DNA of 64,000 bases from Candidatus Bathyarchaeia archaeon (GTDB lineage Archaea > Thermoproteota > Bathyarchaeia > Bathyarchaeales > Bathycorpusculaceae). Both the position numbers and the translations under genes were made by a program. Shown here in pieces: positions 1-59,272 of the stretch. The notes under the pieces were generated by a model that did not search any database, was not told the origin of the DNA, and saw nothing but the letters and a program-made list of their open reading frames with translations. The stretch lies in the NCBI GenBank assembly GCA_049516875.1, contig JBEKSS010000002.1, forward strand, positions 64,001 to 128,000. The letters are read 5' to 3'. Each line of letters opens with the position of its first letter. Position 1 is the first letter of the stretch.

Positions 1-766
1 TGAGGATTTTCTTAACAATTTCAATGTTGGACGTTTCGTTGCCTGCTGCGATGTTGTAGATTCGGCCTGCCTGTCCCTTGGTTAGGACGAGGTGTACGGC
101 TTCGCAGTGGTCGAGCACGTAAATCCAGTCTCTGATGTTCTTGCCAGTTCCGTACAATGGGATCTTGAGGTTTTTGAGGGCTCTGATTATTGTTTTGGGT
201 ATCAGTTTCTCAGGAAACTGGTAGGGGCCGTAGTTGTTTGTGCACCTTGTTATGGCCGCATTGAGCTTGTAGGTTTTGAAGTATGCGTTGACTAGCATGT
301 CGGCGGCTGCTTTTGATGCGGAGTAGGGGTTTGAGGGTCTGGGAGGATCGTCTTCCGTGAATGGGTCTTCGGCCGTTTCCCCGTAGACTTCGTCTGTCGA
401 AACTTGTACGAATCTTGCCCTTCTGTTGTGTTCTCTTACAGCCTCTAGAAGGGTGAAGGTTCCAAGTGTGTTGTTGTGCAGAAACTCGCTTGGGTCGGTT
501 ATGCTTCTGTCCACGTGGGTTTCAGCTGCGAAGTTTACGATGGCCTCTGCTTCTACTACTAGGCGTTTCATGAGTTTTGGGTTTCGGATGTCGCCCTTTA
601 CGAACCTGTATCGTTTTTCTTTGTCGATGTCTTTAAGGCTCGTTGGGTTGGCGCTTAGGCCTATTTTGTCTACGTTTGTGACTTCTGCGTCTGGATGCGA
701 TCTAATTGTTGAGCGGCAGAAGTTGCTTCCTATGAAACCGAGTCCGCCTGTGACAAGAATTTTCAT
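1..766 (-). CDS. rmlB: dTDP-glucose 4,6-dehydratase (runs off window start)
   Basis: Not in ORF track. Minus strand from ATG at 766 reads MKILVTGGLGFIGSNF...NFAAETHVDRSI...VSTDEVYG...YSASKAA; follows rmlA and rmlC. Confidence 0.93.
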   Translation of the reverse strand, partial: MKILVTGGLGFIGSNFCRSTIRSHPDAEVTNVDKIGLSANPTSLKDIDKEKRYRFVKGDIRNPKLMKRLVVEAEAIVNFAAETHVDRSITDPSEFLHNNTLGTFTLLEAVREHNRRARFVQVSTDEVYGETAEDPFTEDDPPRPSNPYSASKAAADMLVNAYFKTYKLNAAITRCTNNYGPYQFPEKLIPKTIIRALKNLKIPLYGTGKNIRDWIYVLDHCEAVHLVLTKGQAGRIYNIAAGNETSNIEIVKKIL

Positions 767-772
767 GGTGTT

Positions 773-1285
773 TCACTTGTAGGGTGGGAGGTTCCAGTCC
801 CACGGTTTGCCCGTTCTCGGGTCGTCTTTCTTGCCGTTTATGATTTTCGGGACTATTTTCGGGTCGTTCCAGGGTCTCCTTTCTTCGTCCGGGCTTGCGT
901 AGTCATAGAGCTTGGTGGTGAAGTAGACGAGAAGGGCGTTTTCGTTTCCCACGGCTTTGTATCCGTGCCAGTAGTGGCCTGGCATCCTAAGCACTTGCAG
1001 ATCCAGTCCTGTTGAGATTAGTTCGTCGAGTTCTTTTGTCTCTTCATCGTACGCGCATATTTTCAGGGCTCCCTTGAGGACTATGAAGTAGTCGACTTGC
1101 CCACGCTTATGTCGGTGCCAGGCGCGAATTATGCCCGGGTAGGTTGTGGAGAAGTTTGTTTGGACAGGTTGATCCTGACCTAGGAGTTCTTTCCAGTCTT
1201 GTCGCATGATTTCGGTGAAACACCCTCTTTCGTCGCAGGCGCGTTTTAGGGGTTTAGGTGTTATTCCTTTGAGCATGTCTTTCAC
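773..1285 (-). CDS. rmlC: dTDP-4-dehydrorhamnose 3,5-epimerase family
   Basis: DERGCFTE, IRAWHRH and GHYWHGY cupin motifs; between rmlA and rmlB. Confidence 0.88.
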   Translation of the reverse strand: MKDMLKGITPKPLKRACDERGCFTEIMRQDWKELLGQDQPVQTNFSTTYPGIIRAWHRHKRGQVDYFIVLKGALKICAYDEETKELDELISTGLDLQVLRMPGHYWHGYKAVGNENALLVYFTTKLYDYASPDEERRPWNDPKIVPKIINGKKDDPRTGKPWDWNLPPYK

Positions 1286-1286
1286 T

Positions 1287-2363
1287 TCACAGTTCTATGC
1301 ATGTTCTTTCTCCGAGGATGAATTTCTTTCCATGCGGTTTGGATTTGTTGGTGGTCAGTTCTGAGTAGGGACCGATTATGCTGTCTGTCATTCTTTCTTT
1401 CATGTCTATTGTGCAGTTGTCCATTATTATGCTGTTTTCTATTTCGCCTTTTTTGATGGTGCAGTTGTTTCCTATGCTTGTGTAGGGGCCGATGTATACG
1501 TTCGGTTCGATAACGGTGTTTTGCCCTATCACGACTGGGCCTCTGACGAGGGCGCCTTCTTTTATGGTTGAGCCATTGGCTGTGGCGACTCGGCCTTGGA
1601 CGGAGGCGTCGTTTTCGATTTTGCCTTGGGTTTCTGGTTTGAGTTCGTCGAGGACTAGGCGGTTGGCTTCGAGGATGTCTTCGGGCGTGCCGGTGTCTTT
1701 CCACCAGCCTTGGACGATTTGGTAGCCCACGTTGTGGCTGGTTTCGAGTAGTAGTTGGATGGCGTCTGTTATTTCGAGTTCTCCTCTCGCTGATGGTTTG
1801 AGTCTGTTTATCATCTTGAAGATTGCGGGTTTGAAGAAGTAGATGCCGGTCAGAGCGTAGTTGCTTGGTGGTTTCTTGGGTTTTTCTATCAGCTTTGCCA
1901 GTCTTCCTTTTTCATCGATTTTGGCAACTCCAAACCGTTGGGGATTCTTTACTTGGCATAAGAGTATCATCGCGTCGTAGTTTGAGCCTTTGAACTTGCT
2001 GACGAAACTGGTGATTCCGCCTTTCAGTAGGTTGTCTCCGAGGTAGACGATGAAGGGTTGGTCTTTAATGTAGTCTTTGCAGAGGCTTACGGCCTGGGCT
2101 ATTCCCTTCGGTTCGTCCTGTTGGATGTACTGAATATCTACGCCGAATCTTTTCCCGTTGCCGTAGTATTCTTTGACTTTTTCTGGGAATACGTTTCCAA
2201 GGACTATTGCAATTTGGGTTATGCCAGAGGCTTTCAGGTCTTCAAGCACGTACTGTGAGTTGGGTTTGTTTGCGATTGGAATCAGCTGTTTTGGGCCCGT
2301 GTGGGTTAATGGCCTGAGTTTGCTTCCGAAACCGCCGTGAAGAATAACACCTTTCATTCTCAC
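1287..2363 (-). CDS. rmlA: Glucose-1-phosphate thymidylyltransferase, long form
   Basis: GGFGSKLRPLTHTGPKQLIP, EKP, ELEITD, WKDTGT and a C-terminal hexapeptide region. Confidence 0.93.
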   Translation of the reverse strand: MRMKGVILHGGFGSKLRPLTHTGPKQLIPIANKPNSQYVLEDLKASGITQIAIVLGNVFPEKVKEYYGNGKRFGVDIQYIQQDEPKGIAQAVSLCKDYIKDQPFIVYLGDNLLKGGITSFVSKFKGSNYDAMILLCQVKNPQRFGVAKIDEKGRLAKLIEKPKKPPSNYALTGIYFFKPAIFKMINRLKPSARGELEITDAIQLLLETSHNVGYQIVQGWWKDTGTPEDILEANRLVLDELKPETQGKIENDASVQGRVATANGSTIKEGALVRGPVVIGQNTVIEPNVYIGPYTSIGNNCTIKKGEIENSIIMDNCTIDMKERMTDSIIGPYSELTTNKSKPHGKKFILGERTCIEL

Positions 2364-2470
2364 CGTGCTTCCTAGGCTTTCCTGTTATGGGAAAGATTGA
2401 TGCAATTCGTATTTAAACACGACTATCTGCGCGCGGAGTGGTTTGTGATGTGATGGCATTGTGGTGAGAA

Positions 2471-2518
2471 AGCCCTTGCTTTTGAGTACTCAATTCGTGT
2501 TTTTTTTGGGCTCAAAAC
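2471..2518 (+). repeat. ~50-bp oriented element, left copy
   Basis: agcccttgcttTTGAGTACTCAAttcgtgttttttttgggctcaaaac aligns with 58720-58768 and with the reverse complement of 55111-55159. Confidence 0.8.
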
Positions 2519-2679
2519 GGGTGGTTTGTTGAGGTTTTTGTTGTGCGTGTGTGTAGCGCGCGTGCGTTGTTTGGTGGCTTGGGCTTCTGGTTTTTGTAAT
2601 AAAGGTGTGTTTGATGTTCTGGAGTACATGAATCGGCGGTTCTGATGCGTCCCTGCGAAGTTCTGGTGGCAGGCGTGGG

Positions 2680-2883
2680 TCAGGTGTTGTATTCTTCGTT
2701 TTCTAGGAGTATGGTTGTGGTGATTGTTGTGTTTGTTTGTGGGGTAGGTTTGGGTTTTTGGGGTTTGGTTCTGGAGCCTGTCCAATAGAGGGTCCATCCG
2801 ATTAGCCAGAGGAGGGTTGTGACGGGAAGAAGTATCAGTATAACTGCTCTGTTGCGTACGCGTATGTTTCTAGGCAGTTTCAA
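2680..2883 (-). CDS. Small single-TM protein, paralog of 51870-52076
   Basis: RNRAVILILLPVTTLLWLIGWTLYWTG versus RNRTIRLLFLPIAILLWIIGWTMLWAG. Confidence 0.75.
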   Translation of the reverse strand: MKLPRNIRVRNRAVILILLPVTTLLWLIGWTLYWTGSRTKPQKPKPTPQTNTTITTTILLENEEYNT

Positions 2884-3303
2884 GATTATGCCTGAATGGA
2901 ACTTTGCGGGATGTGGAAATAAGTGTTTTTGACATGTAGGTGTATCTTTGCATGTTATGGTGGGTCTGGTTCGGTTTGGCAGGATGGAGTTTAGGTCGGA
3001 AGCAAAGCATTTGCAGCGTTTGGCGGGGGCTGGAATTGAAGCGTTTGTTGCAATTCTCTGGGTTGAAGTTTTCCGGTTGTTTCGTTATGATGCTTTTGGT
3101 GTTGCGTTTGGGTGTGAATGATATTTTTCGTCGTGGAAGATATGGGACATTGTTCTAGAACATTTGCATAGATGTTACATAGAATATCGTTTAAATAGTA
3201 GGTTTTCAATTTGAAGGGTTTAGGAGAAAGAGATCGCGGACGAATGTGTGAACATGGGTGAAAATGTGTTCGGTTCCGCTCCTGTCAGGGAGGGATTGGT
3301 TTA

Positions 3304-3696
3304 GTGGAGTCTAGGAGCCGGGTTGAGCGGGATGTGTTTCGGGGTAGGGTTAAGGAGGAGTGGGGGCTATTGTGGGCGGAGCGGTTTGATGACAGGGTTA
3401 GGGCTGAAGGGGTTTCTGTTCGGGATTATCCGTTAGTTTTTGCGAGTCGCGGACACGTTATTTTTGCGACCAGGAACGCGAAGGCTCTGAGTTTTTCGCA
3501 GATAATGGCGGTTCACGCGTCTCAGGGTCTGGTTTATTCTCCTGATCCTGACGTTGGGGGGTGGGGCAAGTTTGCCCGGACGTACGTGGGCAGGGTTGCT
3601 CACTTGAGGGCCAGAGCCTTCGTTAACGGGCAGTCCACGCGTGAGAAAGATGGGCAGCATCGGAAGAAGGGCGGCAGGGGCTGGCTTCACAAGTAA
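3304..3696 (+). CDS. Hypothetical protein
   Basis: 130-aa ORF preceded by GGAGG and collinear with downstream genes; no family recognised. Confidence 0.65.
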   Translation: MESRSRVERDVFRGRVKEEWGLLWAERFDDRVRAEGVSVRDYPLVFASRGHVIFATRNAKALSFSQIMAVHASQGLVYSPDPDVGGWGKFARTYVGRVAHLRARAFVNGQSTREKDGQHRKKGGRGWLHK

Positions 3697-3774
3697 TGTT
3701 TCATAAGTAGCGCGTGTGTCTTGTCTTAGATAATCTGTTTTCCGCTGTTCTGTTTGTGTTTGGTTGTGTTTTCA

Positions 3775-4128
3775 ATGGGTAAGTACAGGGATGGGCTTAG
3801 GATCATAGCGGATATTCTGCATGCTGCCGGCAGCGGTTCGAAGAAGACTCGGATTATGGGTGTTGCAAACTTGAGTTACAGGCTTTTCGAGAAGTACTTG
3901 GGGAGGACGGTTCAGGTTGGTTTCTTGCGGTTGAACGATGAGGGCTACGAAGTCACAGAGAAAGGTCAGGATTTTCTCGAAAAATACCATGATTTATCTG
4001 GTAGATACTCGAAGTTGGACACCGAGCTTCAGAGCGTCCTGTATGAGAAGGAGATTTTGAAGAGGATGAGTCAGCCTTTGAGGAATGGCAAGCTTAAGGC
4101 GGTGTGTGGGAGGAAACGTCGAAGGTGA
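3775..4128 (+). CDS. Archaeal winged-helix DNA-binding protein (HTH_45-like)
   Basis: MGKYRDGLRIIADIL...KKTRIMGVANLSY...YEVTEKG pattern; ATG at 3775 is the likely start. Confidence 0.82.
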   Translation: MGKYRDGLRIIADILHAAGSGSKKTRIMGVANLSYRLFEKYLGRTVQVGFLRLNDEGYEVTEKGQDFLEKYHDLSGRYSKLDTELQSVLYEKEILKRMSQPLRNGKLKAVCGRKRRR

Positions 4129-4646
4129 AGGGTCTGCTCAGGCAGCGGGCTAAGAGTCTTGCTTGGCTGTTGTTGGTTCTGATTGTTGCGGGCTTGCTCT
4201 CGTACGGGTCGCCGTGTGCCAAGGGAGCTGACGATGCTTCGGGGAGTGTTGGAAACGCGGATGCTGCGGTTCGTCAGGCTTTTAACGCTGCTTTGGATGC
4301 TGAGAGGGCTGGGGCGAACGTTTCCGGTTTGATTGTGAGGCTGAATGAAGCTGGGGCTGTTTTGGTGGAGGCTGAAGTTGCGCTTGGAGACGGGAATTCA
4401 AGCGAGGCTGCTAGCAAGGCTGGCCAGTGTGTTGGAATTGCTGAAAGTGTCAGAAGCGAGGCTGATGCTTTGAAGACGTCGGCCTTGGATGGGGCACAGA
4501 CGGTTTTTTGGATGTATCTCACTTTTTCGGTGGTCGGCATTGCTGTGTTTGTTGCTGTTTTGGCGCTCGTTTGGCGACGGTTCAAGCGCGACCATGTTGA
4601 GAAGACGTTGAGTATGAAGCCTGAGGTGGCGCATAATGAAGCTTGA
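4104..4646 (+). CDS. Membrane-anchored helical protein (signal peptide plus C-terminal TM)
   Basis: Hydrophobic N- and C-terminal segments around an Ala-rich helical core; likely start is GTG 4125, overlapping the upstream stop. Confidence 0.7.
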   Translation: MWEETSKVKGLLRQRAKSLAWLLLVLIVAGLLSYGSPCAKGADDASGSVGNADAAVRQAFNAALDAERAGANVSGLIVRLNEAGAVLVEAEVALGDGNSSEAASKAGQCVGIAESVRSEADALKTSALDGAQTVFWMYLTFSVVGIAVFVAVLALVWRRFKRDHVEKTLSMKPEVAHNEA

Positions 4647-5232
4647 GGACTACAAGCAAGTTTTTGCCGCTGTGGGCTTGGTTGGCGTTTTGCTTTTCGC
4701 TACTCCAGCTTTGGGTTTAGTAGTGCATCTTCCAAGTGGAGAGAAGTTTTCGGAGCTTTATGTTTTAGGCTCAGGGCATATGGCTGAAGACTATCCGTTT
4801 AACGTTAGAGAGAATGAGAGTTACCTGGTTTATCTGGGGGTTGACAATCATTTGAGCAGTTCGGCTTATTATGAAGTCATCGTGAAGTTTGCGAATCAAT
4901 CTGAGTCTTTGCCTGATACAACGGCCGGCGTGCCCAGTTCGTTGCCGGGGCTGTACGAGTACCGTGTGTTTCTACAGGATGGACAGAGTTGGGAGCAGCC
5001 GTTGACTTTTTCGTTTTCCCAGGTGTCAGCTGCGCAAAATCGGTCGGTGGTTGGTGGTTTGCGGGTGAATGGTGTCACGCTTAGCGTGGAGAAGCCTGAG
5101 GTGTGGGACGACGGGAACGGTGGGTATTTTTATGAGGTGTTTATGGAGTTGTGGATTTACAACGTTGCCTCTGATGCATTTCAGTTTCACAACCGTTTCG
5201 TGGGCCTATGGTTGAACGTGACGGCCTCTTAA
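4636..5232 (+). CDS. DUF1616-like protein (C-terminal, extracellular part)
   Basis: TM segment followed by EKFSELYVLG...MAEDYP...VYLGVDNH...LWLNVT. Confidence 0.72.
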   Translation: MKLEDYKQVFAAVGLVGVLLFATPALGLVVHLPSGEKFSELYVLGSGHMAEDYPFNVRENESYLVYLGVDNHLSSSAYYEVIVKFANQSESLPDTTAGVPSSLPGLYEYRVFLQDGQSWEQPLTFSFSQVSAAQNRSVVGGLRVNGVTLSVEKPEVWDDGNGGYFYEVFMELWIYNVASDAFQFHNRFVGLWLNVTAS

Positions 5233-5352
5233 GTCAAGTTTTTAAGGGCGACTGTAAGATACTTATAGAACTTTCTTCCTCTATCACTTAAATGTATGGA
5301 GGACGAAGGTAAATCATACCGTCGCAGATTAGCGGCTTTGGTGGTGCTCTGA

Positions 5353-7072: not shown

Positions 7073-7185
7073 TACCTGCGGGAAACTGCTTTTCAGCCTT
7101 GAAGGCAGGAATTGTAGTTTTTGTTCTGTAATTCTTAACCACAGTGCGCGTGCGTTGGCAACAGATTGATTGGAGGCGCGAATGA

Positions 7186-9089: not shown

Positions 9090-9101
9090 AAGAAGCGCGT
9101 T

Positions 9102-11698: not shown

Positions 11699-11751
11699 AG
11701 AAGTTAATACTGTGTTTATGGAAGATGATGTAACCTAGGCGGAGACAAAAA

Positions 11752-16865: not shown

Positions 16866-16890
16866 AGCGCGATCGATCGATCGCATACAG

Positions 16891-45430: not shown

Positions 45431-45449
45431 TCATTTCCCTCTCTTTGTT

Positions 45450-48788: not shown

Positions 48789-48850
48789 AATCCTACCTTG
48801 GAATCTTATTCCGAGAAAATTCTGAACGTGCGCGCTAAACGAGCGCGCGC

Positions 48851-48955
48851 CCTGAAAAACCCAGGCAACCTAGCCCTCGCCCTGAAAGCCTTAACCATGA
48901 CAGTCGCAATGATAGCACTATACTTTCAAGACCTGAGAATAATCTTCACCGACGC
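48851..48955 (+). pseudogene. Possible N-terminal fragment of an exosortase/archaeosortase-like membrane protein
   Basis: LALKALTMTVAMIALYFQDLRIIFTDA resembles, from recall, such N-termini; ends at CGCGCGC 48953. Confidence 0.4.
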
Positions 48956-49065
48956 GCGCCACGTTTGGAAAACCAGGATGACCGGCAAAAGTCGAGAACA
49001 CAAGCGTCTGAGCGTGTGGAAGCAGATAATAACCCGTAGCTCAAAGTAGAAAAGAGGAGTCCAAA

Positions 49066-49890
49066 GTGCGCGTAGGAATAAACCTAGTAAGCTCAGCAAG
49101 TGTGACAATGCTTCTGCTGGGCACGATATCCCTAGTAGCTTCAATAGGCTATAATTCATCCATACTTGCTTTCATAGGCCTAGGCCTAGTCTTCTGGGGA
49201 GCAGTTCTCCTCTACATCAAACCCGAACGATACGCGAAAAAAACCCTCTTGGAAGCCGCATTGTCACCTTCTCTCACAACATTAAACCAGATGATCCTGG
49301 AACTCGGCTACAAAGGAGACGCCACATACCTCCCCCCAAAATACTTCACAGATCCAGAGACCACCCGGATGTGCGTGTCAAAATACAAGTATACAAGCCT
49401 TCCAACGCCAGAACAAATCCAACCATACGAGGACCAACCCTTAGCCCAAACCGCGCAAGGCCTGCTGCTCACACCGCCCGGGTTTGAGCTGTCAAAACTG
49501 CTGGAAAAGTCACTCGGAAAGAGCTTCATCAAAACAGACCTCGAAAGCCTCCAGCAGAGCCTCCCAAAAATCTTCATCGAAGACTTGGAAATCGCCGAAA
49601 ACCTGGAACTGCAAGCAGACACTTTCAACAAAAAAGAAGGCGTAACTGCATATGTCACTCAGGTGAGGAACACCACGGTCCACGCAACAATAACCAAACC
49701 GATCATTAGAAACAAACTCGAAGAGGCTGAACAAACCTCGCAGATAACCAGCTCAATCTTCTTCCCGCTCTGCAGCGCCATCGCCATAGCCATAACCAAG
49801 GCAACAGGCAAACCAGTAAGAATAACAGACACTATGAGCTCCGAGGACGGCAATGTTATAGAGGCCAGCTTCGAAATCGTGGAGGAATAG
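49066..49890 (+). CDS. Conserved archaeal membrane protein
   Basis: Two N-terminal TMs, YLPPK, TPPG, PLCSAIA. Confidence 0.75.
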   Translation: MRVGINLVSSASVTMLLLGTISLVASIGYNSSILAFIGLGLVFWGAVLLYIKPERYAKKTLLEAALSPSLTTLNQMILELGYKGDATYLPPKYFTDPETTRMCVSKYKYTSLPTPEQIQPYEDQPLAQTAQGLLLTPPGFELSKLLEKSLGKSFIKTDLESLQQSLPKIFIEDLEIAENLELQADTFNKKEGVTAYVTQVRNTTVHATITKPIIRNKLEEAEQTSQITSSIFFPLCSAIAIAITKATGKPVRITDTMSSEDGNVIEASFEIVEE

Positions 49891-49894
49891 CGCA

Positions 49895-50107
49895 ATGGAT
49901 TTTCCCATGTCATTCTGGGACATGAGCCTGTGGCTAGCCATCACAGCCATAATCCTACTCGTAACATCAGAACTCATCTCATCGTACTACGGAAAAACAA
50001 ACCCCCCCATCAACGAAAACAGACTACGAAATGTAGCACTAGCCGTCTCAACACTCTTCCTCGCAACAGTGGCTGTAAGAATAGTCACCATCATAATCAG
50101 CCCGTAA
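49895..50107 (+). CDS. Small two-TM protein
   Basis: SLWLAITAIILLVTSELIS...RLRNVAL; collinear with neighbours. Confidence 0.7.
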   Translation: MDFPMSFWDMSLWLAITAIILLVTSELISSYYGKTNPPINENRLRNVALAVSTLFLATVAVRIVTIIISP

Positions 50108-50329
50108 CGCGGAAAGAAACACGAAGACCAACGCGCTTGCAACCCACATTCTATACAGCGACAAACATGAAGGCACGTCTGGATTCCATGCAGACACAGA
50201 ATTCTGCGGCCGCACGTGCCTCCGGTGGAAACGCTGTTTCTTACAACAACGAAACAACGTTAACATAGAAGCATAAACCCTAAAACCTACAATAAACCTA
50301 ACAAGCCAACAGCCAAGGAGCCAACACAT

Positions 50330-50989
50330 TTGCCCAAAAAACCCGCCGAAGACGAACTGGACCAACAGATAATCCGCACCGTTGAAACGGAAAAACCAGA
50401 AACCATCCAACATCTAATCGACCAAGTACAGGCACTGTCATCAAAACCCAAACAGGAAATATTGGACCGAATACTGCAACTACAGCAAACAGAAAGAATC
50501 CACCTCAAACCAGCCCAAACAGCAACCCCGGAAAAGCTCACCAGCTACCTGCGCTCAAACCAAGCCCTCTGGTACTGGATCACCATGGCACTCACGATAG
50601 CCACAGCCATAGTCGTGTTCACTGTCCCCGAAGACGCCTTCCCACTAGTGTACCTAAGATACGTCCTAGGCACAGCGTTCGTCCTGTGGCTGCCAGGCTA
50701 CGCCTTCACAAAAGCCCTCTTCCCACAAAACCTTCCATTCGCCAAAGCCCTAGCACGCTCATCCGACACGTCTGAAAAAGAGTTGGACGCCATTGAACGC
50801 ATAGCCCTGAGCGTGGGCATGAGCATTGCACTCGTCCCCATCGTCGGCTTGCTCCTAAACTACACACCGTGGGGCATTCGTTTAACACCCATAGTCCTAA
50901 GCCTGCTCGCGTTGACCACAATCTTCGCCACAGCCGGAATCATAAGGGAACATCAAACCAGAGCCCCCCAAAAACGCAAGCCCAAATAG
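50330..50989 (+). CDS. DUF1616-like protein (N-terminal membrane part)
   Basis: RYVLG..FVLWLPGY..ALFP, ERIALSVGMSIA, LLNYTPWGI. Confidence 0.8.
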   Translation: MPKKPAEDELDQQIIRTVETEKPETIQHLIDQVQALSSKPKQEILDRILQLQQTERIHLKPAQTATPEKLTSYLRSNQALWYWITMALTIATAIVVFTVPEDAFPLVYLRYVLGTAFVLWLPGYAFTKALFPQNLPFAKALARSSDTSEKELDAIERIALSVGMSIALVPIVGLLLNYTPWGIRLTPIVLSLLALTTIFATAGIIREHQTRAPQKRKPK

Positions 50990-51169
50990 GCGCGCGCTAC
51001 TGAAACCAAAACAGTCAAGGTCGAGCAAACTCCGTCAAAACTCGACAACACGAAACCATCGACAAGAAATAAAAAAAGGACAGATGCCATCCCTTTTGAC
51101 AGCATAATCCCAAAACAGTCAGGGTCGACTGGTTTCCGATCGCACGGGTATCGCTGGTGCCCTGTAGAA

Positions 51170-51628
51170 CTATTGTGTTGCTGTGATGGTTATGTCGAAG
51201 CTGAAGGTTGTGATGCCGGTGATGCTTGATGAAACCGTAAGGCTCAGCACGGCCTGGACAGATGCGCCCACTGCAAGCACGTAACCAGCCCTGTTCCAAG
51301 TCAGCGTGAAGTAGCTTGAAGCCGAACTTGGGTTCCAGTTGCCCGCACTTATGCTTAACGTGACTGGCACGTTGCCCTCGTTCTTCAGGTAAATCGTCGC
51401 CGTTGACGTCCCGCCGGCATTCAATGTTCCCCAACTGACGCTCGATAGCGCGGATGTACATCCGCTGTCTGAGTACACGCCCAGCTGCACCGATGGCGGC
51501 GTGACGACTGCGATGTTGCCCGTGTTCGAGACTGTGCGAGTCGCAACTAATGAGCCCACCGCGCTAGTGACTAGGGCCATAACCGCTAATACTAGGACCG
51601 TTCCCATGGTTGCTTTTTGCATAGCCAT
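51170..51628 (-). CDS. Small secreted Ser/Thr-rich beta-sandwich protein
   Basis: Signal peptide, VSNTGNI, SWGTL, YLKNEGN, FSFDITI. Confidence 0.75.
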   Translation of the reverse strand: MAMQKATMGTVLVLAVMALVTSAVGSLVATRTVSNTGNIAVVTPPSVQLGVYSDSGCTSALSSVSWGTLNAGGTSTATIYLKNEGNVPVTLSISAGNWNPSSASSYFTLTWNRAGYVLAVGASVQAVLSLTVSSSITGITTFSFDITITATQ

Positions 51629-51869
51629 AATCTTTCACTAAGACAAACAGGGTAATCTGAAGTCTTAATAAACATTATTGTCCACACAAACAACACAAAT
51701 ACACATCACAAAACATACACACAACCAAAAACATGCAAAAACAACCCCAAAAACCACAATAATGTACAACACACCACAAAACACATCCCAACTACTTATC
51801 CCAACTTCATAAAAGCTTTAACTAAGCATAACACGAGTCAACCGTCCGACCTCCAAAAAAAGGCCGTAC

Positions 51870-52076
51870 GTGGTCAACTCTATGCGCAACAGAACAATCA
51901 GGCTACTGTTCCTGCCAATCGCAATACTCCTCTGGATAATCGGATGGACCATGCTCTGGGCAGGCACCCGCAAAGAGCAAAAAACTCAACAAACCCAAGC
52001 CGAAACCGCCGCAGAAAACGAGTCCATAACCATAATACCTATGATATCTGAAGAACAAGAACAATGCGAAGCCTAA
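51870..52076 (+). CDS. Small single-TM protein, paralog of 2680-2883
   Basis: LLWIIGWTMLWAG motif and acidic tail. Confidence 0.75.
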   Translation: MVNSMRNRTIRLLFLPIAILLWIIGWTMLWAGTRKEQKTQQTQAETAAENESITIIPMISEEQEQCEA

Positions 52077-52174
52077 CCGGCGCGCGTTCGATCGATCACA
52101 CAAACAGCTAAATCACAAAAACCGTTAAATATGTTCTAACCCTCTTGAGCAAAGCCTGAAAGGATGGAAAGACC

Positions 52175-53803
52175 ATGGAAAAAGCGCTGGAGATGGGCAA
52201 GACCTCAGCCACTGGAAGCTTCCAGCTGCTCATAGGCGTAGCCTCATCCACCATAATAATGGCCGTCGGAACAATAATCCTGACGAGGCTCTTGGGGAAC
52301 GGCAATTACGGCTTGTACGTTTTGGCTATGGCTCCCAGCGTCACGATAAACCTTTTTCGAGACTGGGGAGTCAACAGCGCCATGACCAAGTACGTGGCCA
52401 GGCTTCGAGCCGAAAACAAGGAACTGGAAACCTGCGACGTGGTCGCCGCCGGGATGGCCTTCGAAGTTGCTACCGGCGTGGCCCTGTCCTTCCTGTCCTT
52501 CGTTCTGGCAGGATTCTTCGCATCAATCCTCAAGAGACCCGAGATTTACCCGTTCATATCAATCATGTCCCTCACGATACTCTCAGGTTCACTGCTAGCG
52601 GCCGCGCAATCCTGCTTCATCGGCTACGAAAGAATGAACCTAAACAGCTTCACAGTAATCTGTCAAGCCATCGTCAAAACCGCTGTTGGCCCCGTCTTGG
52701 TTCTCCTCGGATACGGAATCCTCGGCGCCACGCTCGGCTTAACTCTGTCCTTCGTCGCGGCAGGAGTAATCGGAGTCGCCACACTCTACCTCATCCTTTA
52801 CAGGCCCCTCAGCAAACGCAGAAAAGCCAAGCGCAGCATTGTCGAAACCCTGAAACCAATGCTAAGATACGGCGTACCGCTCAACATATCCGGCATCCTG
52901 CTAGGCCTGCTAGGCCAGCTCTACACTCTGTTGATGGGCATCTACATCCCCAACACAGCCGCAGGAAACGGATTGATAGGCAACTACGGCGTTGCGGTTA
53001 ACTTCACCGTGCTTCTAACGTTCTTCACCCTCCCAATCGGAACCGTCCTGTTTCCCGCTTTTGCGAAGCTCGACTCGCAGAACGAGCATGAACTACTCAA
53101 GACAGTCTTCGCATCCTCCGTCAAATACACCGCGATACTCCTCATACCCGCAACGATGGCCGTGATGGCCCTTTCAACCCCGATAGTCAACACGCTGTTC
53201 GGCGAAGCATACGCCTACGCACCCTTCTTCCTAACCCTGATAGTCATCACCACCCTGTTCGCAGCCGTGGGCAGCCTCACCCTGAGCAGCTTCCTGACAG
53301 GCCTCGGCGAAACAAAAGTGCTGATGAAACAAGCCGTCCTCACGCTGCTCATCGGCCTGCCCCTAGCATTCCTGCTCATCCCGCCGTTCGGAATACTGGG
53401 GAACATAATCGGAAGCTCTATAGCGGGAATTCCAAGCATGATATGGGGCCTCTACTGGGTGTGGAAACACTACCAAGCCAAAGCCGAACTCCGCTCATCC
53501 GCAAAAATCTCCACAGCCTCAGCCCTCGCCGCCATCGCATCCTTCCTGACCACTACACTTCTGCACACAGCCGCATGGATACAGCTCATCATCGGCCTCG
53601 CCGTCTTCCTAATCATCTACGTACTCGGAGCCCCCCTCATCGGCGCAATATACCAATCCGACATCGACGCCCTACGACACATGTTCTCAAGCCTGGGCAT
53701 CGTCTCAAAAATAATCAACATCCCACTAAAAGCAGCAGAGAAAGCCGCACAGACCAGAGCACGCCACAGGACGCCGGAAGAACCAGAACAACGCGAAGCC
53801 TAG
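52175..53803 (+). CDS. Oligosaccharide flippase (Wzx/MOP family)
   Basis: About 14 TMs, RLLG..NYG, VLFPAFAKL. Confidence 0.88.
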   Translation: MEKALEMGKTSATGSFQLLIGVASSTIIMAVGTIILTRLLGNGNYGLYVLAMAPSVTINLFRDWGVNSAMTKYVARLRAENKELETCDVVAAGMAFEVATGVALSFLSFVLAGFFASILKRPEIYPFISIMSLTILSGSLLAAAQSCFIGYERMNLNSFTVICQAIVKTAVGPVLVLLGYGILGATLGLTLSFVAAGVIGVATLYLILYRPLSKRRKAKRSIVETLKPMLRYGVPLNISGILLGLLGQLYTLLMGIYIPNTAAGNGLIGNYGVAVNFTVLLTFFTLPIGTVLFPAFAKLDSQNEHELLKTVFASSVKYTAILLIPATMAVMALSTPIVNTLFGEAYAYAPFFLTLIVITTLFAAVGSLTLSSFLTGLGETKVLMKQAVLTLLIGLPLAFLLIPPFGILGNIIGSSIAGIPSMIWGLYWVWKHYQAKAELRSSAKISTASALAAIASFLTTTLLHTAAWIQLIIGLAVFLIIYVLGAPLIGAIYQSDIDALRHMFSSLGIVSKIINIPLKAAEKAAQTRARHRTPEEPEQREA

Positions 53804-53857
53804 CTCATAGCCTTAGCGAACCAGTCCATCCTATCGTCAGCCTTTCAGCCCGAACAT

Positions 53858-55117
53858 TTGAAAAAGGGCGGCCGCCGACAGCCAAGGGACAGTATGAAAC
53901 GTTTTTCCCGATTCTTCCAACAACCCGCCTTCCACAACTATGACTGCAGAGACGCTTTAAACGACCCAACCAGATCAGCGGAACACGCCTCCTGGACAAA
54001 TCCTAAATACTATCCTCACTCACAAACCTTCTCAGAACACCACCGTATCAGCCAGAATGCGAGATGCAACAAAGTGATTGAACGCATAATACTTGTCACG
54101 GGTGGAGCCGGCTTCATAGGCAGCCATTTGACCCAAGAGCTGCTAAACCAGGGACACAAAGTAACCATACTCGACAACTTCTCAAACGGAAAAATGAAGA
54201 ACATTCAACACTCGCTGGGCAACCCTTCCCTAGCCATAGTCAAAGAAGACCTAAAAAGACCGAAGAAACTGAGGCAAATCATAAACGCCTCGGACACAAT
54301 CTTCCATCTGGCCGCAAACCCCGAGGTAAAATTGGGCGAAACCGACCCTAAAACGCATTTTGAAGAAAACATCCTCGCAACCTTCAACCTGCTCGAGACC
54401 ATGAGAAAAAGTGGAAAACCAAAAACCCTCGTCTTCACCTCAACATCCACCGTGTACGGAGAAGCCACACAGGTTCCAACAAGAGAAGACTACGCTCCGC
54501 TCATACCCATCTCAACCTACGGCGCCTCAAAACTCGCCTGCGAAGCCCTCATCACAAGCTACGCCCACACGTTCAACCATCGAGCCCTCATCCTGCGCCT
54601 CGCCAACATCATCGGCCCAAGATCAAACCACGGAATCATAGTCGACTTCATCAAAAAAATCAAGGCCAACCCCACAGAACTCACGATACTCGGCGACGGA
54701 AACCAAAAAAAATCCTACATGTACATAACAGACTGCACAAGCGCAATCATCCACCTGACCGAAACCTTCTCCAAAAGCACCCAAAAAACCGACATCTTCA
54801 ACCTGGGCTCCAACGACAAGATAACCGTCACACAAATCGCAAAAACCCTCGCACAACTGATGAACACACCCAACATAGAATACAAGTTCACCGGCGGAGT
54901 CGACGGCGGAAGAGGATGGAAAGGCGACGTCAAAACCATGCAACTATCCATAGACAAACTAGCCAAAACCGGATGGAAACCAAACTACACAAGCAAACAA
55001 GCCGTAAAACTGGCCGCAAAAGCCCTAATCCAAGAAAACACCACACCTCAACAAACCCACGCAAACAGGCCAAACACCAAGAAACAACCAAACCCACAAC
55101 CCCGCACAGCGTTTTGA
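53858..55117 (+). CDS. UDP-glucose 4-epimerase-like
   Basis: VTGGAGFIG, HLAANPEV, YGASK, GRGWKGDV; true start near 54074; stop codon lies inside the repeat element. Confidence 0.9.
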   Translation: MKKGGRRQPRDSMKRFSRFFQQPAFHNYDCRDALNDPTRSAEHASWTNPKYYPHSQTFSEHHRISQNARCNKVIERIILVTGGAGFIGSHLTQELLNQGHKVTILDNFSNGKMKNIQHSLGNPSLAIVKEDLKRPKKLRQIINASDTIFHLAANPEVKLGETDPKTHFEENILATFNLLETMRKSGKPKTLVFTSTSTVYGEATQVPTREDYAPLIPISTYGASKLACEALITSYAHTFNHRALILRLANIIGPRSNHGIIVDFIKKIKANPTELTILGDGNQKKSYMYITDCTSAIIHLTETFSKSTQKTDIFNLGSNDKITVTQIAKTLAQLMNTPNIEYKFTGGVDGGRGWKGDVKTMQLSIDKLAKTGWKPNYTSKQAVKLAAKALIQENTTPQQTHANRPNTKKQPNPQPRTAF

Positions 55118-55160
55118 CACTCAGAAGAATCACGGATTGAGCACTCAAACACAAGGGCTC
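55111..55160 (-). repeat. ~50-bp oriented element, right (inverted) copy
   Basis: Reverse complement is 47/50 identical to 58719-58768. Confidence 0.92.
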
Positions 55161-55253
55161 AAAACCCAGCATACGAGGCGCGCCGTCCGAAACCTAAATG
55201 AAGGCACAGCCTCATTACGTCTGGTATTTTAGCGGAAAACGGAGGATAACAAG

Positions 55254-55910
55254 ATGTTCGCCGTTGGGCACATGGCCTTTGGCTACCTCTCAAGCAAGGC
55301 TTCATCAAGCACGCTCAAAACAAAACTCAACATTCCCATAGTGCTAACCCTGTCAATCCTTCCCGACAGCGACATCCTAGCCCGCGAAATCTTCCCGTCC
55401 CTTCAGCACCGAGGCCCAACACACTCAATCATCACCGCCCTCATCGTTTTCGCGCCCTTCTTCCTCATCTACCGCAAACAGGCAATACCCTACTTCATCG
55501 CCCTAGTCCAACACGGCCTCGTAGGCGACTACATCGCAGGAGGCCGCGTTCAACTCTTGTGGCCCATCACAAACATGTACTTCGGCACAAGCCTAAACAT
55601 TATGAGCCTCACAAACCAAACCCTAGAATGGACGATGTTCCTGGCCGCAACAGTACTCATGCTCAAAATGAAAGACTACAAACCGTTCTTCAAACCCCAA
55701 ACCTCAAACCTACTCCTCATCATCCCAACCCTCACAGTACTGCTGCCAACACTCCTCAGCACCCCCATGGACGTACCACCCATGCTGATACCCCCACACA
55801 TATTCTACCTAATCATCTTCGCAGCAGCCATACTCATCGAGCTGCTCTTCGTAATCTCCCGAACCCTAAAACCCGCGGCTCGCAGCGCATCAAAAGAAGG
55901 AATTGACTAG
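55254..55910 (+). CDS. Membrane metal-dependent hydrolase (YdjM-like)
   Basis: GH, LPDSD, HRGPTHS, H...D motifs. Confidence 0.82.
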   Translation: MFAVGHMAFGYLSSKASSSTLKTKLNIPIVLTLSILPDSDILAREIFPSLQHRGPTHSIITALIVFAPFFLIYRKQAIPYFIALVQHGLVGDYIAGGRVQLLWPITNMYFGTSLNIMSLTNQTLEWTMFLAATVLMLKMKDYKPFFKPQTSNLLLIIPTLTVLLPTLLSTPMDVPPMLIPPHIFYLIIFAAAILIELLFVISRTLKPAARSASKEGID

Positions 55911-57070
55911 CCAGGAGGCGCAGGCCTCGTCCCCAAAACCAGTGACAGCAGCAGCGTTTGATTCCCCCTGGCTATAGTCAGTATCACGGTTTCTTTTGGC
56001 ACTGTGTTCGCTTCAACCCAGCTTTTCATCTCATCTCCGCTTATGGTACGTGTCCCGTTGATGCCGATGATTACATCGTTGACCTGCACGGGCATGGGCG
56101 TTCCGTTGGCGGCAGTTGCGCTAGCAGCTGGGCCATTCTGTACCACAGCGCCGATTAGCCAGCCGTACGTCACGCTGGTGTGCAAATTCTGAGCCGTGTC
56201 GTAATCCATGTCTGTTCCTTGGACGCCCAAGTACGAGTGCGCGTTATAGCTGCTGAATTCAACCAGATCGTATATCTCTTTCTGTATAGTGTTTGAGGGC
56301 ACGGCAAAGCCCAAGCCCTGTGAGTTTTCAACTATCGCCGTGGTTATTCCCACGACGCTGCCATTCCAGTTCAGTAATGGGCCGCCAGAGTTCCCCGGGT
56401 TTATGGGTGTGCTTGTCTGTATTATGTTCGCTATAGCGAACCCTCCAGCAAGATCTTCAGTGATCGTCCTTCCTAACGCACTAACTATTCCCGTGGTCAT
56501 TGAACCGGTCAAGCCGTAAGGGTTGCCTATGGCTACAACAGGGTTGCCGACCTTCAACGATGACGAGTCGACGATTTCAAGCGGTTTGAACTCGCTCTCA
56601 GAAGCACCAGTCACGGAGAGAACGGCCAGGTCTGAGTACGGGTCTGTTCCTTTCACCGTTGCAGCGTACCCGTTTCCATCTGAAAAAGTCACGCTCACTC
56701 CTGTCGCCCCGTGGACAACATGGTTGTTCGTTACCACGATCAACGATCCCGTGAAGTTATAGATGAAGCCTGACCCTTGAACGGTTCCGTTGCTCGTTTT
56801 TCCGCTTATCAGGACGACTGAATCCTTCACCTTGTCGAATATTTCCGTAAAGGCTGTCGTACCGTTCTGGTACACTGTGCCGTTTTGAATGTAGATGTTT
56901 TGGTTTCCTGAAATGCCTGAAACCTTGCCTTCAAGGTTGGAAATGTCATCATTAAGCGTGCCAATCTGCTTATAGAACACGTAAGCAGTTACAATTCCTC
57001 CAAGAATCAACCCGGCCACGAACATCAGGATTAAGATTGAGGAAGAATGCTCTCTTTGGTGTTCAACCAT
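55907..57070 (-). CDS. HtrA/DegP-like serine protease with PDZ domain
   Basis: GSGF, TNNHVV, DLAV, INPGNSGGPL; N-terminal TM. Confidence 0.92.
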   Translation of the reverse strand: MVEHQREHSSSILILMFVAGLILGGIVTAYVFYKQIGTLNDDISNLEGKVSGISGNQNIYIQNGTVYQNGTTAFTEIFDKVKDSVVLISGKTSNGTVQGSGFIYNFTGSLIVVTNNHVVHGATGVSVTFSDGNGYAATVKGTDPYSDLAVLSVTGASESEFKPLEIVDSSSLKVGNPVVAIGNPYGLTGSMTTGIVSALGRTITEDLAGGFAIANIIQTSTPINPGNSGGPLLNWNGSVVGITTAIVENSQGLGFAVPSNTIQKEIYDLVEFSSYNAHSYLGVQGTDMDYDTAQNLHTSVTYGWLIGAVVQNGPAASATAANGTPMPVQVNDVIIGINGTRTISGDEMKSWVEANTVPKETVILTIARGNQTLLLSLVLGTRPAPPG

Positions 57071-57168
57071 CCTGCTTGCCTTCTTCGTAAAATGATTAGG
57101 TGTGTCTCTTAAGAGTTTCCGGCGTATCCAGATTTTGCTAACACGCGTGGATTTTTCAAGCTGTAAAG

Positions 57169-58176
57169 CTATTTTCTTCGGTCAATCAGATCCAGTGCTT
57201 CCGGTCCAGTACCTATGAGGCCGACTGGAACCTGTGTGCGTGCTTCAACTTTTTCCAGGAACTCTTTTGCTTCTTTCGGTAGCTGCTTGTAGGTTCTTAC
57301 GCCTCTGCATTCAGGGAATACACAGTCAAGTTTTGTCACTGCAAGCTGCGTTGCACCGTTGATCACTGCGGCCTTTCTGGCGAGCTCAAAGTTGAACGGA
57401 GCAGAACGTCTGTCTCGGCCTGTTCCAGCGGCAGTTTCGAACCATCCGCGGTTAATAGCTTCGTCTTTCGGTATCTCTCCAGGCAAAGGACCTGTACCTA
57501 CACGCGTGATGAAGGATTTGAAGACCAGCGTGACCTGATCGATTCTGGTGGGCCCTACACCCGCTTCAGAGCATATCGCCGCCGCGCTTGTATCCCTGCC
57601 GGTCACGTAGGGGTAGGTTCCATGATAGAGCGAAAGTAACAGGCCCTGAGTTCCCTCCAGCAACACTTTTTTGCCGGTATCTAAAGCTTGATTTGTCTCC
57701 ATCGCAACGTCCGTAAGATAAGGTTTGAGTTCTGGGATGTCTTTGGCGAGTTTCGCGGTTCTGCGCACGCGCTCTTCGATTGCTGGGCCTACGCCCCAGC
57801 CTGTGGTGCCCAGTCCTTTGAGATGTTCGCTAGCCTTGTCTTGAGCTGAATGTTTTTCTTCGATTATTGAAGCCTGGCTGTCTACGCGTATACGGTTCTT
57901 AACATCTGTTTCCTCGACTTCCTTAAGGAACTGTGCAACGTGAACGTTAGCGCCGGCAGCGATGAGCAGACGGCACTTTCTGCTTACGAAGCAGCCGGGA
58001 ACCATGTGCAATGCGTAACGCTTGCCTTCAAACCAAATCGTGTGAGCAGCATTTACCGAGCCTGTTCTCACGCAGAAATCCGGTTTGTCGTTGAGGGCAA
58101 GGTACGAGATTATCTTCCCCTTGCCCTCGTCCCCCCAAAATCCTCCGGCTACAACTGTGCATGGCATTGTTTTCAC
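57169..58176 (-). CDS. purA: Adenylosuccinate synthetase (short archaeal form)
   Basis: WGDEGKGK, EGTQG, GTYPYVT, TRVG.GP, TKLD. Confidence 0.96.
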   Translation of the reverse strand: MKTMPCTVVAGGFWGDEGKGKIISYLALNDKPDFCVRTGSVNAAHTIWFEGKRYALHMVPGCFVSRKCRLLIAAGANVHVAQFLKEVEETDVKNRIRVDSQASIIEEKHSAQDKASEHLKGLGTTGWGVGPAIEERVRRTAKLAKDIPELKPYLTDVAMETNQALDTGKKVLLEGTQGLLLSLYHGTYPYVTGRDTSAAAICSEAGVGPTRIDQVTLVFKSFITRVGTGPLPGEIPKDEAINRGWFETAAGTGRDRRSAPFNFELARKAAVINGATQLAVTKLDCVFPECRGVRTYKQLPKEAKEFLEKVEARTQVPVGLIGTGPEALDLIDRRK

Positions 58177-58245
58177 CGATCAGAGAATTTGCTTGGTTTT
58201 ATTTAAGAGTGTTTGCCGGTTTAATGTCAAAGGCATGCGGGCGAC

Positions 58246-58650
58246 TCAGACGCGTGCGTTCAGTTTTCGTGTCTCGCTGTCTATTTTTTGCAGGAGTCTT
58301 GTGAGCTTTTCTGCTTTGGATTCGATTTCTTTTTTAGAAACAGTTCCAGCTAGCGGACAGAGGTCATCCACGATTACTCCTTCTTCTTCACTGTAGATGA
58401 TGGGGTAGATCCGACATCCCAGCGGCCTACGATTGTAAGCCCTGCAACGATGTTTCGCGGTTTGGTAGAAAACGCAGTATCCTCGGCTGTTCCGTAATTG
58501 AGCAAAGCCTTGCCTGTTGAAGCGGACGAACTTTTCTCTGTTGTATCCTGCCTTTTCTAAGAGCCTAATGTCAGCCTTCGAGAGCAGCATCTCAGTTTTC
58601 TCGCAGCATATGCCACAGTGTGAGCAGCGCATGAGCACATGCAGATGCAA
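58246..58650 (-). CDS. YkgJ family cysteine-cluster protein
   Basis: CSHCGICC, CVF, C.AY..RPLGCRIYP. Confidence 0.85.
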   Translation of the reverse strand: MHLHVLMRCSHCGICCEKTEMLLSKADIRLLEKAGYNREKFVRFNRQGFAQLRNSRGYCVFYQTAKHRCRAYNRRPLGCRIYPIIYSEEEGVIVDDLCPLAGTVSKKEIESKAEKLTRLLQKIDSETRKLNARV

Positions 58651-58705
58651 ACCTTTCTAATTTGGCTTTTCGGTGGCGCACGTTGATCGAGAAGAGTTGG
58701 GCGTT

Positions 58706-58913
58706 CATGTTGGCGTGTGAGCCCTTGTGTTTGAGTGCTCAATCCGTGATTTCTTTGAGTGTCAAAACATTGTTGAAGCATGTTGGTTCAGTGCTTTTTT
58801 TACTCAATTCTGCGGGGTTTTTGAGTGTCAAAAGTTTTGGGTGTTGGGTTTCTCATGTTGGAGTTGGCGTTCTTGTGTTTGAGTGCTCAATCCGTGATTT
58901 TTTTGAGTGTCAA
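58706..58913 (+). repeat. Three tandem ~74-bp units of the oriented element
   Basis: Units start with catgttgg at 58706, 58779 and 58854; each ends in ttgagtgtcaa; the middle unit is degenerate. Confidence 0.85.
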
Positions 58914-59035
58914 TCTGTTAACTGGTGCTCTCTCTTTTTTTGTGCAATCGTTCTTGTTGTGTCGGCTACCGTGGCTGGTTTTTGTGGTTTGGCGGTGTCT
59001 GGGATTATTCTTCTTTTTCTGGTTTCTGGGCTTGG

Positions 59036-59272
59036 TTATCCGCCTTTAATCAGGTTTAGGTTCAGCAGTTCTGCCCATGCAATGGTTTTCAAGGGTACCT
59101 TTAACGTGTTTCTGTTTCCGCAAGGGACGCAGGTGACGAACCTTTGTCTTTTGAACTCGTCTTTCTGAATCTCTCCTAACTGGACGTTTACGATTACGGA
59201 GCCATCTTTTAGGTGAAGGTTGACGTTCTTTCCGAGGAAGGATCGTGCAGAATTCATGCCGAAACTTTCCAT
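59036..59272 (-). CDS. Small hypothetical (Sm/LSm-like beta) protein
   Basis: FLGKNVNLHLKDGSVIVNV; start probably at MESF. Confidence 0.55.
   Translation of the reverse strand: MESFGMNSARSFLGKNVNLHLKDGSVIVNVQLGEIQKDEFKRQRFVTCVPCGNRNTLKVPLKTIAWAELLNLNLIKGG

Follow-up and report, generated by a model that had tools for sequence, protein, structure and literature searches.

Kilobase-scale strand skew around oriented copies of an intergenic repeat in a Bathyarchaeia genome

Introduction

The window analysed here is a stretch of 64,000 nt (contig C2, positions 64001-128000) of a Bathyarchaeia metagenome-assembled genome (G000; 2.43 Mb in 20 contigs, 97% complete) whose DNA was matched in peat and wetland metagenomes. 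Judged by adenylosuccinate synthetase, the nearest relatives are other Bathyarchaeia MAGs. The window contains two domains of a few kilobases with a strong excess of G and T over A and C on one strand, the plus strand in one domain and the minus strand in the other, along with copies of a T-rich intergenic repeat of about 60 nt (the element). The locus raises the question of whether such a skew belongs to the genes, to the chromosome as a whole or to the element, and this was addressed in the window, across G000 and by comparison with three congeners (G002, G003 and G004), of which G002 is the sister species and was compared over 1.55 Mb of fetched sequence. The skew was found to belong to the DNA strand and not to the genes, and to be centred on copies of the element, which is species-specific.

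Results

Skew domains of the window

Keto skew, (G+T-A-C)/n, was computed per kb unless stated otherwise, and k1, k2 and k3 denote its value at the three codon positions. The relevant features of the window are as follows.

1..5232, left skew domain; plus strand G/T-rich, keto skew +0.18 to +0.55 per 250 nt
2440..2530, plus strand, element copy with the repeat at 2456-2516; core TTGAGTACTCAATTCGTG, flanking modules and T-tracts
2517..2790, plus strand, G/T-rich tract 3' of the element, probably non-coding
48800..55910, right skew domain; plus strand A/C-rich, sense k3 of plus-strand genes -0.45 to -0.62
51700..51799, extreme A/C patch, non-coding, upstream of the flippase gene; GC skew -0.89, AT skew +0.63
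55040..55113, minus strand, G/T tail of the minus-oriented element; the plus strand reads A/C-rich and codes for the C-terminal tail of the epimerase
55114..55193, minus strand, element copy between the epimerase gene and ydjM
55907..59422, minus strand, htrA-purA-CxxC-o128 block (the purA block); plus-strand third-position skew positive in G000
58705-58790 and 58834-58913, plus strand, two tandem element copies with cores at 58731 and 58879
58914..59035, plus strand, G/T-rich tail 3' of the tandem copies; non-coding, 3' of o128

Plus-strand keto skew ranges from +0.26 to +0.33 per kb in the left domain (1-5 kb) and from -0.22 to -0.35 per kb in the right one (49-56 kb); between the two domains lies a 43-kb glycosylation island of lower GC content with a keto skew of about zero. 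For G000 as a whole the 1-kb keto skew has a standard deviation of 0.092, and an absolute value above 0.2 is reached in 90 of 2418 windows. Third codon positions account for most of the window's skew, which is present in Pfam-verified genes of either strand. The minus-strand genes of the left domain (2-2363; rmlB-like, rmlC and rmlA, Pfam-verified) have sense k3 values of -0.45 to -0.63 and the plus-strand open reading frames (ORFs) at 3304-5232 have values of +0.44 to +0.58, among them the Pfam-confirmed HTH_45 (+0.44) and DUF1616 (+0.46) genes, so that genes of both orientations share the same plus-strand sign. The plus-strand genes of the right domain encode o274, an N-terminal part of DUF1616, a flippase, an epimerase and YdjM, the last three with sense k3 of -0.48 to -0.62.

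Besides the A/C patch upstream of the flippase gene, extreme values were obtained for short patches at 2520-2619 (GC skew +0.62, AT skew -0.70), 3020-3119 (GC skew +0.52, AT skew -0.56) and 58950-59049 (AT skew -0.77). The minus-strand ORF 2423-2797, which spans the patch at 2520-2619, is skewed alike at all codon positions (k1 -0.49, k2 -0.46, k3 -0.54) and is without a Pfam match. An initial annotation of the window, made from its letters, had described the two domains, the sign common to genes of either orientation, the extreme patches, the weak skew of the island centre and an imprint on protein sequence, and all of these are borne out by the values above. The imprint is seen in the translated epimerase, whose low-complexity C-terminal tail contains TTPQQTHANRPNTKKQPNPQP.

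The repeat element

The unit of about 60 nt consists of a perfect 12-bp palindrome, TTGAGTACTCAA, several T5-T8 tracts on one strand and optional extra modules, with the consensus ATGTTGGGTTTTGAGCCCTTGTGT-TTGAGTACTCAA-TCCGTGATTTCTTTGAGTGTCAAAAC, further sequence preceding it. It begins with ATGTTGG and finishes with GTCAAAAC; inverted termini, as would be expected of a cut-and-paste miniature transposon (MITE), are not obvious by eye. A search with an 18-nt core allowing up to three mismatches gave 71 matches in G000, two of which were dropped as likely chance matches inside coding DNA without flanking modules, leaving 69 copies at 51 loci. The copies are often arranged in tandem, spaced by 148 nt or by about 85-93 nt. 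Shorter TTGAG..CTCAA motifs also occur. Deviations from the consensus at 2 to 24 of 66 positions indicate that the copies are not all recent.

Among the 41 genomes searched, copies with at most two mismatches to a 22-mer of the element numbered 67 in G000, three in G004 and one in G002, with none in the other 38, and the exact 22-mer had no match in the genome-contig and viral-contig collections. No Rfam family was matched in the window at the gathering threshold, nor over 58600-59100 at E<=5. Folding of the 226-nt array with RNA energy parameters did not rise above shuffled sequences (z -0.36 and -0.52 for the two strands). The Y1 transposase family (PF01797) had no match in G000, while control genomes were matched; a TnpB-like zinc ribbon gave one partial match each in G000, G002 and G004 and is thus not specific to G000.

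Every unit carries runs of T5-T8 on its G/T strand, the pattern (five or more T in a row on the non-template strand) by which a putative archaeal intrinsic terminator is recognised. Termination of the adjacent gene was considered as a role and rejected, since the genes flanking paired copies, by inspection of the gene lists, point outward in only 10 of 17 cases on the left and 8 of 17 on the right. Metagenome contigs from four peat and wetland runs aligned to 46000-64000 break at elements, and in a divergent strain the contigs end at the same element positions. For positions 1-8000 of the window, no matching RNA data set was listed. Inversion at elements was also rejected: joints on opposite strands reach only 63-75 nt into the repeat and were read as mis-placement of the repeat.

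Orientation of the element and skew of its flanks

When read in the orientation of the element, the keto skew is +0.24 over the 500 nt downstream, where it is positive at 94% of the 71 copies, +0.15 over the 500 nt upstream and +0.12 from -1000 to -500, and it declines to about +0.03-0.05 at 1.5-5 kb downstream. Random sites gave 0.00 +/- 0.10 in the same profile. In a further comparison, 100 nt upstream and 350 nt downstream of the element were masked and the following 1 kb was scored; these flanks agree with the orientation at 41 of 51 loci upstream (p 1.5e-5), at 43 of 51 downstream (p 6.9e-7) and on both sides at 37 of 51. G/T tracts (at least 88% G+T in 60 nt) lie within 400 nt of an element in nine of 20 cases, all nine being concordant in sign and eight of them downstream. 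The profile and the masked flanks both tie the orientation of the element to the polarity of the DNA strand.

It had been claimed initially that the sign of the skew follows the orientation of the element. This holds genome-wide, with fading over about 2-5 kb. The accompanying proposal of a process starting at the element is not supported in its simple form, as the skew upstream is of about the same strength as that downstream and the field is therefore two-sided.

Gene strand and replichores

In G000, 2235 genes were called with a simple caller based on amino-acid composition, which reproduced the Pfam-verified genes of the window; sense k3 statistics are based on the 1432 longer called genes. 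On the strand of an element, genes lying no more than 1 kb away from it average +0.08 (n=18) and +0.145 (n=34) in sense k3; on the other strand they average -0.27 (n=35) and -0.385 (n=26), the background being -0.07. These genes show almost no preference for either strand with respect to the element (52 same, 61 opposite). Of 131 near-element genes scanned with Pfam, all of them outside the window, 104 had a match, and these confirmed genes average +0.122 on the element's strand (n=46, 78% positive) and -0.278 on the other (n=58). The shift toward the element's strand in same- and opposite-strand genes amounts to +0.05 in both classes at k1, to +0.02 and +0.05 at k2 and to +0.19 and +0.25 at k3. 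Across the whole genome, and independently of the element, neighbouring genes on opposite strands are also correlated in plus-strand k3, with r=0.30 in 233 convergent and r=0.35 in 202 divergent pairs (the largest r among 2000 permutations was 0.17). Gene strand, which the initial annotation had named as a possible refuting explanation, fails to account for the skew, as both strand classes shift toward the element's strand. Synonymous sites on either strand are thus shifted to G+T on the strand that bears the T-rich sequence of the element, from about 2 kb upstream to at most about 5 kb downstream of it.

A general preference for A/C at third positions of the sense strand exists as a separate and weaker layer. 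Sense k3 over the 1432 genes has a mean of -0.077 and a standard deviation of 0.177, with 93 genes below -0.35 and 15 above +0.35, and the A/C bias is strong in the genes for S6e, eIF2-gamma and EF-1alpha. The earlier statement that the skew does not follow transcription can be kept for the sign shared by near-element genes of both orientations, but has to be qualified by this sense-strand bias.

A replichore trend was seen neither in per-10-kb nor in cumulative keto skew on contigs C1, C2 and C3. The two Cdc6 genes lie at about 99 kb of C3 and about 7.6 kb of C2, at least 56 kb from the skew domains of the window, and the comparison with their positions, which had been suggested at the outset, likewise indicates that the skew is not explained by replichores.

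Paired copies

Neighbouring loci less than 10 kb apart comprise 17 (-,+), two (+,+), one (-,-) and no (+,-) arrangements. Neighbours of opposite orientation are therefore (-,+) in 17 of 17 cases (sign test p 1.5e-5), at separations of 1.7-7.9 kb, and across each such pair the plus-strand k3 goes from negative to positive whatever the orientation of the genes. By analogy, the (-,+) pairs would have the polarity of a bacterial origin, i.e., of a site of diverging synthesis. The bracketed or flanking genes are ordinary housekeeping genes, among them those for NrdD, PyrB/PyrI, adenylate kinase, ThyX, PurA, RPA-like, PCNA, PriL, XPF-like, EF-1alpha, TBP, TFB, FttA and SOD proteins. At a threshold of 0.3, the skew jumps upward 16 times and downward 12 times in G000 (skewness +0.26 to +0.31), an excess of upward jumps that is not shared by G002 (eight against six; skewness about 0).

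Insertions and lineage change relative to the congeners

The nature of the most extreme patches is indicated by empty sites in the relatives. In G004 the epimerase ends with AEAN, and about 25 nt separate it from the ydjM leader. At the same site in G000 an A/C tract of about 75 nt and the element are inserted, and the epimerase frame runs into the tract. Similarly, the CxxC-o128 spacer measures 133 nt in G002 and 386 nt in G000. The element can thus bring with it, as part of the inserted DNA, a 3' tail of 50-270 nt that consists almost purely of G and T, and such tails make the most extreme patches and lengthen the reading frames running into them. The initial view of these patches as mutated ancestral DNA is accordingly abandoned, since the low-complexity tails are absent from the empty sites. 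It should also be noted that the epimerase-ydjM spacer of G002 (L099:10130-10948) contains about 800 bp of inserted DNA that includes a minus-strand ORF and is flanked, by eye, by the direct repeat CTGAGGCC; with the element in G000 and this insert in G002, the spacer looks like an insertion hot spot.

The skew of the rml, epimerase and ydjM genes is common to G002, G003 and G004, and the window genes that are G/T-rich in sense are positive in G002 too, more weakly. The purA block behaves differently: its sense k3 is -0.10 to -0.38 in G000, against +0.38 to +0.10 in G002, +0.23 to +0.12 in G004 and about 0 in G003. The plus-strand sign of this block has thus changed in G000, beside plus-oriented copies that are lacking in the relatives.

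In the 1.55 Mb fetched of G002 only one diverged copy of the element was found. Among 802 orthologue pairs of G000 and G002 the k3 values are correlated with r=0.747. Within 1 kb of an element, k3 in the frame of the element is 0.222 in G000 and 0.113 in G002, a difference of 0.109 +/- 0.025, as compared to 0.007 +/- 0.006 more than 10 kb away, where the G002 orthologues have an element-frame k3 of about -0.02. Same-strand genes are more G/T-rich in sense in G000 (0.149) than in G002 (0.024). The G000 excess given G002, based on a regression of far genes, decreases with distance from 0.152 (0-0.5 kb) through 0.097, 0.059 and 0.046 to 0.009 (6-10 kb); it is two-sided and extends further downstream. 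Judging from these orthologues, about half of the skew pre-dates the element or at least exists without it and the remainder is lineage-specific, and the skew shared with G002 suggests that the element partly follows a pre-existing polarity. The initial claim that the skew is imposed by the element agrees with the change in the purA block but not with the roughly half already present in a sister species with one diverged copy. The rare copies elsewhere obey the sign rule (one of one in G002, three to four of four in G004).

Spacers with an element are associated with breaks in synteny, their flanks being adjacent in G002 for 13 of 19 as against 528 of 587 other spacers (p=0.011). In the window, the copy at 2456-2516 sits at a rearrangement junction of G000 relative to contig C1 of G002, which involves 1-2434, 3156-5294 and 50533 onward. 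The rml operon of G002 directly adjoins the DUF1616/epimerase flank, while in G000 it occupies the opposite end of the island, and the G002 homologue of 3156-5294 is about 37 kb off, on the other side of the G002 island. An inverted homology of 84 nt (71%) between 2773-2856, upstream of the rml operon, and 51885-51968, upstream of the flippase gene, may be a trace of the rearrangement. Partial matches to DUF1616 are found in both domains with opposite skew (profile 154-273 at 4636-5232 and profile 5-123 at 50330-50989), the genes spanning 4104-5232 on the left and 50330-50989 on the right and each covering only part of the family model.

Substitution spectrum

Changes were polarised in the purA block at third positions where G002 and G004 agree, and G000 was found to differ at 341 of 820 such sites. 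On the plus strand, changes from A/C to G/T outnumber the reverse by 227 to 64, and by 112 to 37 when G003 also agrees. The most frequent changes are C>T (108), A>G (68), G>A (39), C>G (32), A>T (19) and T>C (17). Expressed as a rate per ancestral base and set against the complementary change, C>T is 0.341 vs 0.205 for G>A, A>G is 0.370 vs 0.132 for T>C, C>G is 0.101 vs 0.021 for G>C and A>T is 0.103 vs 0.031 for T>A. Transitions dominate the counts and transversions are at least as asymmetric, which means that deamination of single-stranded DNA is not singled out. In the unpolarised comparison of four-fold sites between G002 and G000, the 9160 sites near elements exceed the 49659 far sites in A>G, C>G and T>G. 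Asymmetric change, proposed initially as mutation, is therefore seen on the element's strand in the purA block, but its spectrum is not specific to single-strand deamination. Deamination driven by heat was also considered and is unlikely, because the organism comes from peat and wetland metagenomes.

Other skewed and repeated sequences

Strong A/C3 bias was also found in three tyrosine-integrase genes, located in the region C11:3858-9341 and at C10:8603-9610 and C14:33898-34758 (-0.84, -0.65 and -0.62, respectively). The opposite-strand gene C11:8388-9341 near the first of them has a k3 of +0.77 and hence the same plus-strand sign. These regions probably represent mobile elements that became integrated and are skewed over a whole strand; the repeat has no copy in their vicinity. 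G002 possesses a repeat family of its own (120-270 nt, about 24 matches, motif ATTACATCTGACATTACAA, e.g., C1:128781-129050) with no match in G000, and its orientation is weakly related to flank skew in the partial G002 genome.

Within the island of the window, a (GATC)n-type motif, GATCGATCGATCGA, occurs at the intergenic sites 15061, 26490, 32772, 41391 and 43741 in both orientations, and six copies of a repeat with a 66-nt period are found at 30479-31250 within a 555-aa ORF (30120-31787). Bordering the right skew domain on its inner side, 46959-48788 encodes a polysaccharide deacetylase fused to CARDB, PKD and dockerin domains.

Discussion

The explanation favoured here, which we hold tentatively, combines the two layers of skew, i.e., the inserted tails and the shift at synonymous sites, with a local strand polarity and a separate sense-strand A/C layer. 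The chromosome would possess local strand polarity, either as a prevailing direction of DNA synthesis or as recurrent single-strandedness of one strand, and this polarity would bias substitutions toward G/T on one strand. The element would obey the polarity, being inserted or retained in one orientation, and would also mark or strengthen it. The sense-strand preference for A/C at third positions, strongest in highly expressed genes, would be superimposed on this. A bolder version, which we regard as doubtful, is that each (-,+) pair brackets a start of outward-running DNA synthesis, giving at least 17 local initiation zones beside or instead of the Cdc6-linked origins, or that the element is a site of programmed single-strandedness which raises strand-specific mutation around core genes.

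Several results weigh against the favoured explanation, above all against the element as the main cause. Local skew in G002 equals that in G000 (1-kb standard deviation 0.090, with 3.0% of windows above an absolute value of 0.2), so that with one diverged copy found there the element is not needed for skew domains. Given G000, the G002 values lie only 0.039 +/- 0.016 below the regression prediction, and much of the difference between the two genomes could stem from the choice of loci by a feature of G000. Divergence of the copies from the consensus has no positive relation to flank skew (rho -0.18, p 0.21) and there is hence no sign of skew accumulating with copy age. The skew of non-element intergenic DNA within 1.5 kb is only +0.084, below the third-position shift, which is unexpected for a purely neutral mutation bias, and an asymmetry of all substitution types fits a compositional bias as well as any single lesion. 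The crude gene caller is, in addition, a caveat on every genome-wide gene statistic. Many of these points would suit an element that is a passive marker of domains with an older cause, inserting or surviving in one orientation, for instance by targeting an exposed or G/T-rich strand, and adding only its tail. The already shifted G002 orthologues (0.113, against about -0.02 far away), the equal skew variance, the small regression-controlled excess, the lack of a relation with copy age and the weak link between orientation and skew in an unrelated G002 repeat family are all in keeping with such a marker. Passive marking alone is nevertheless considered rather unlikely. The eight upward and six downward jumps of G002 would predict both (-,+) and (+,-) pairs, whereas G000 has 17 and none, and the sign of the purA block changed specifically where plus-oriented copies were gained; the pair rule and this sign change together argue against a purely passive marker. 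In addition, no Y1 transposase of the IS200/IS605 type, by which strand-specific insertion would be explained, was found in the 97% complete genome.

A bias linked to transcription or translation, with well-expressed sense strands A/C-rich at wobble positions and T-tracts tolerated only antisense, would account for the surplus of strongly A/C3-rich genes (93 against 15), for the values of S6e, eIF2-gamma and EF-1alpha and for the many housekeeping genes, probably well expressed, among the neighbours of the element. As a sole cause it is largely refuted and seems improbable, since the 46 Pfam-confirmed genes on the element's strand average +0.122 with 78% positive, gene strand is near random relative to the element (52 vs 61), divergent and convergent neighbours share their plus-strand skew, and same-strand genes gained G/T in sense in G000 (0.149 vs 0.024). 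Integration at the island borders of foreign or mobile DNA with an intrinsic skew, such as a rolling-circle or single-stranded replicon, is suggested by the three tyrosine-integrase genes, which have the most extreme A/C3 values (-0.84, -0.65 and -0.62) and one of which lies 3.7 kb from an opposite-strand gene sharing its plus-strand sign. This is very improbable for the window flanks and is contradicted there: three or four congeners have orthologues of the rml, epimerase, ydjM and purA-block genes, mostly in the same order, and the near-element genes are core housekeeping genes. Replichore-scale skew from Cdc6-linked origins is refuted by the absence of a trend on three contigs and by domains a few kb long that alternate in sign, and hardly any weight is given to it.

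The preferred combination of local polarity and an oriented element resembles several known systems in part. Bacterial leading strands have an excess of G+T, and human replication origins lie at the upward jumps of skew N-domains. The skew described here shares with these the excess of G+T over A+C, the independence of gene strand and the minus-to-plus polarity at (-,+) pairs; it differs in its scale of 2-10 kb, as against replichores or hundreds of kb, in the lack of a replichore signal and in being centred on an oriented repeat and fading within a few kb. Members of the IS200/IS605 and RAYT/REP families are biased in orientation relative to the direction of replication. They too are short palindrome-bearing repeats with an orientation tied to strand polarity and not to genes, but here no Y1 transposase was found and the palindrome is a perfect loopless 12-mer, with no significant fold of the 226-nt array under RNA energy parameters. 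To our knowledge these families have not been reported in kb-scale skew fields.

Transcription-associated asymmetry and the R-loop-prone GC-skew regions of CpG-island promoters, terminators and immunoglobulin switch regions are similar in their kb-scale excess of G (and T) beside T-rich, terminator-like sequence. They differ in that the sign seen here ignores gene strand and that highly expressed genes are A/C-rich in sense, opposite to the usual direction. In the heavy strand of vertebrate mitochondria the skew is proportional to the time spent single-stranded; the enrichment in G+T, the gradient with distance and the dominance of C>T and A>G in the counts are comparable, but in G000 the field extends to both sides of many chromosomal sites and the asymmetry includes transversions. 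We know of no system in which an oriented chromosomal repeat is combined with two-sided skew fields on the kb scale, and a literature search covering titles and abstract openings found no description of repeat-centred local skew in archaea.

These results have practical consequences for annotation. Skewed DNA of this kind shapes codon usage and protein tails, its extreme local composition could pass for foreign DNA, and it opens long chance ORFs on both strands, ORF 2423-2797 being an example, so that homology is needed to confirm coding. In prokaryotes, strand asymmetry is usually attributed to replichores or to gene strand, whereas here synonymous skews of 0.4-0.8 occur in domains of a few kb that ignore gene direction and accompany an oriented repeat with a strict (-,+) rule. 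If the (-,+) pairs were initiation zones, the skew at synonymous sites would be a fossil map of fork polarity. More generally, if the cause is the direction of synthesis or single-strandedness, sequence by itself would allow such processes to be mapped in an uncultured archaeal lineage for which two Cdc6/Orc1 genes are the only hints at the sites of replication initiation.

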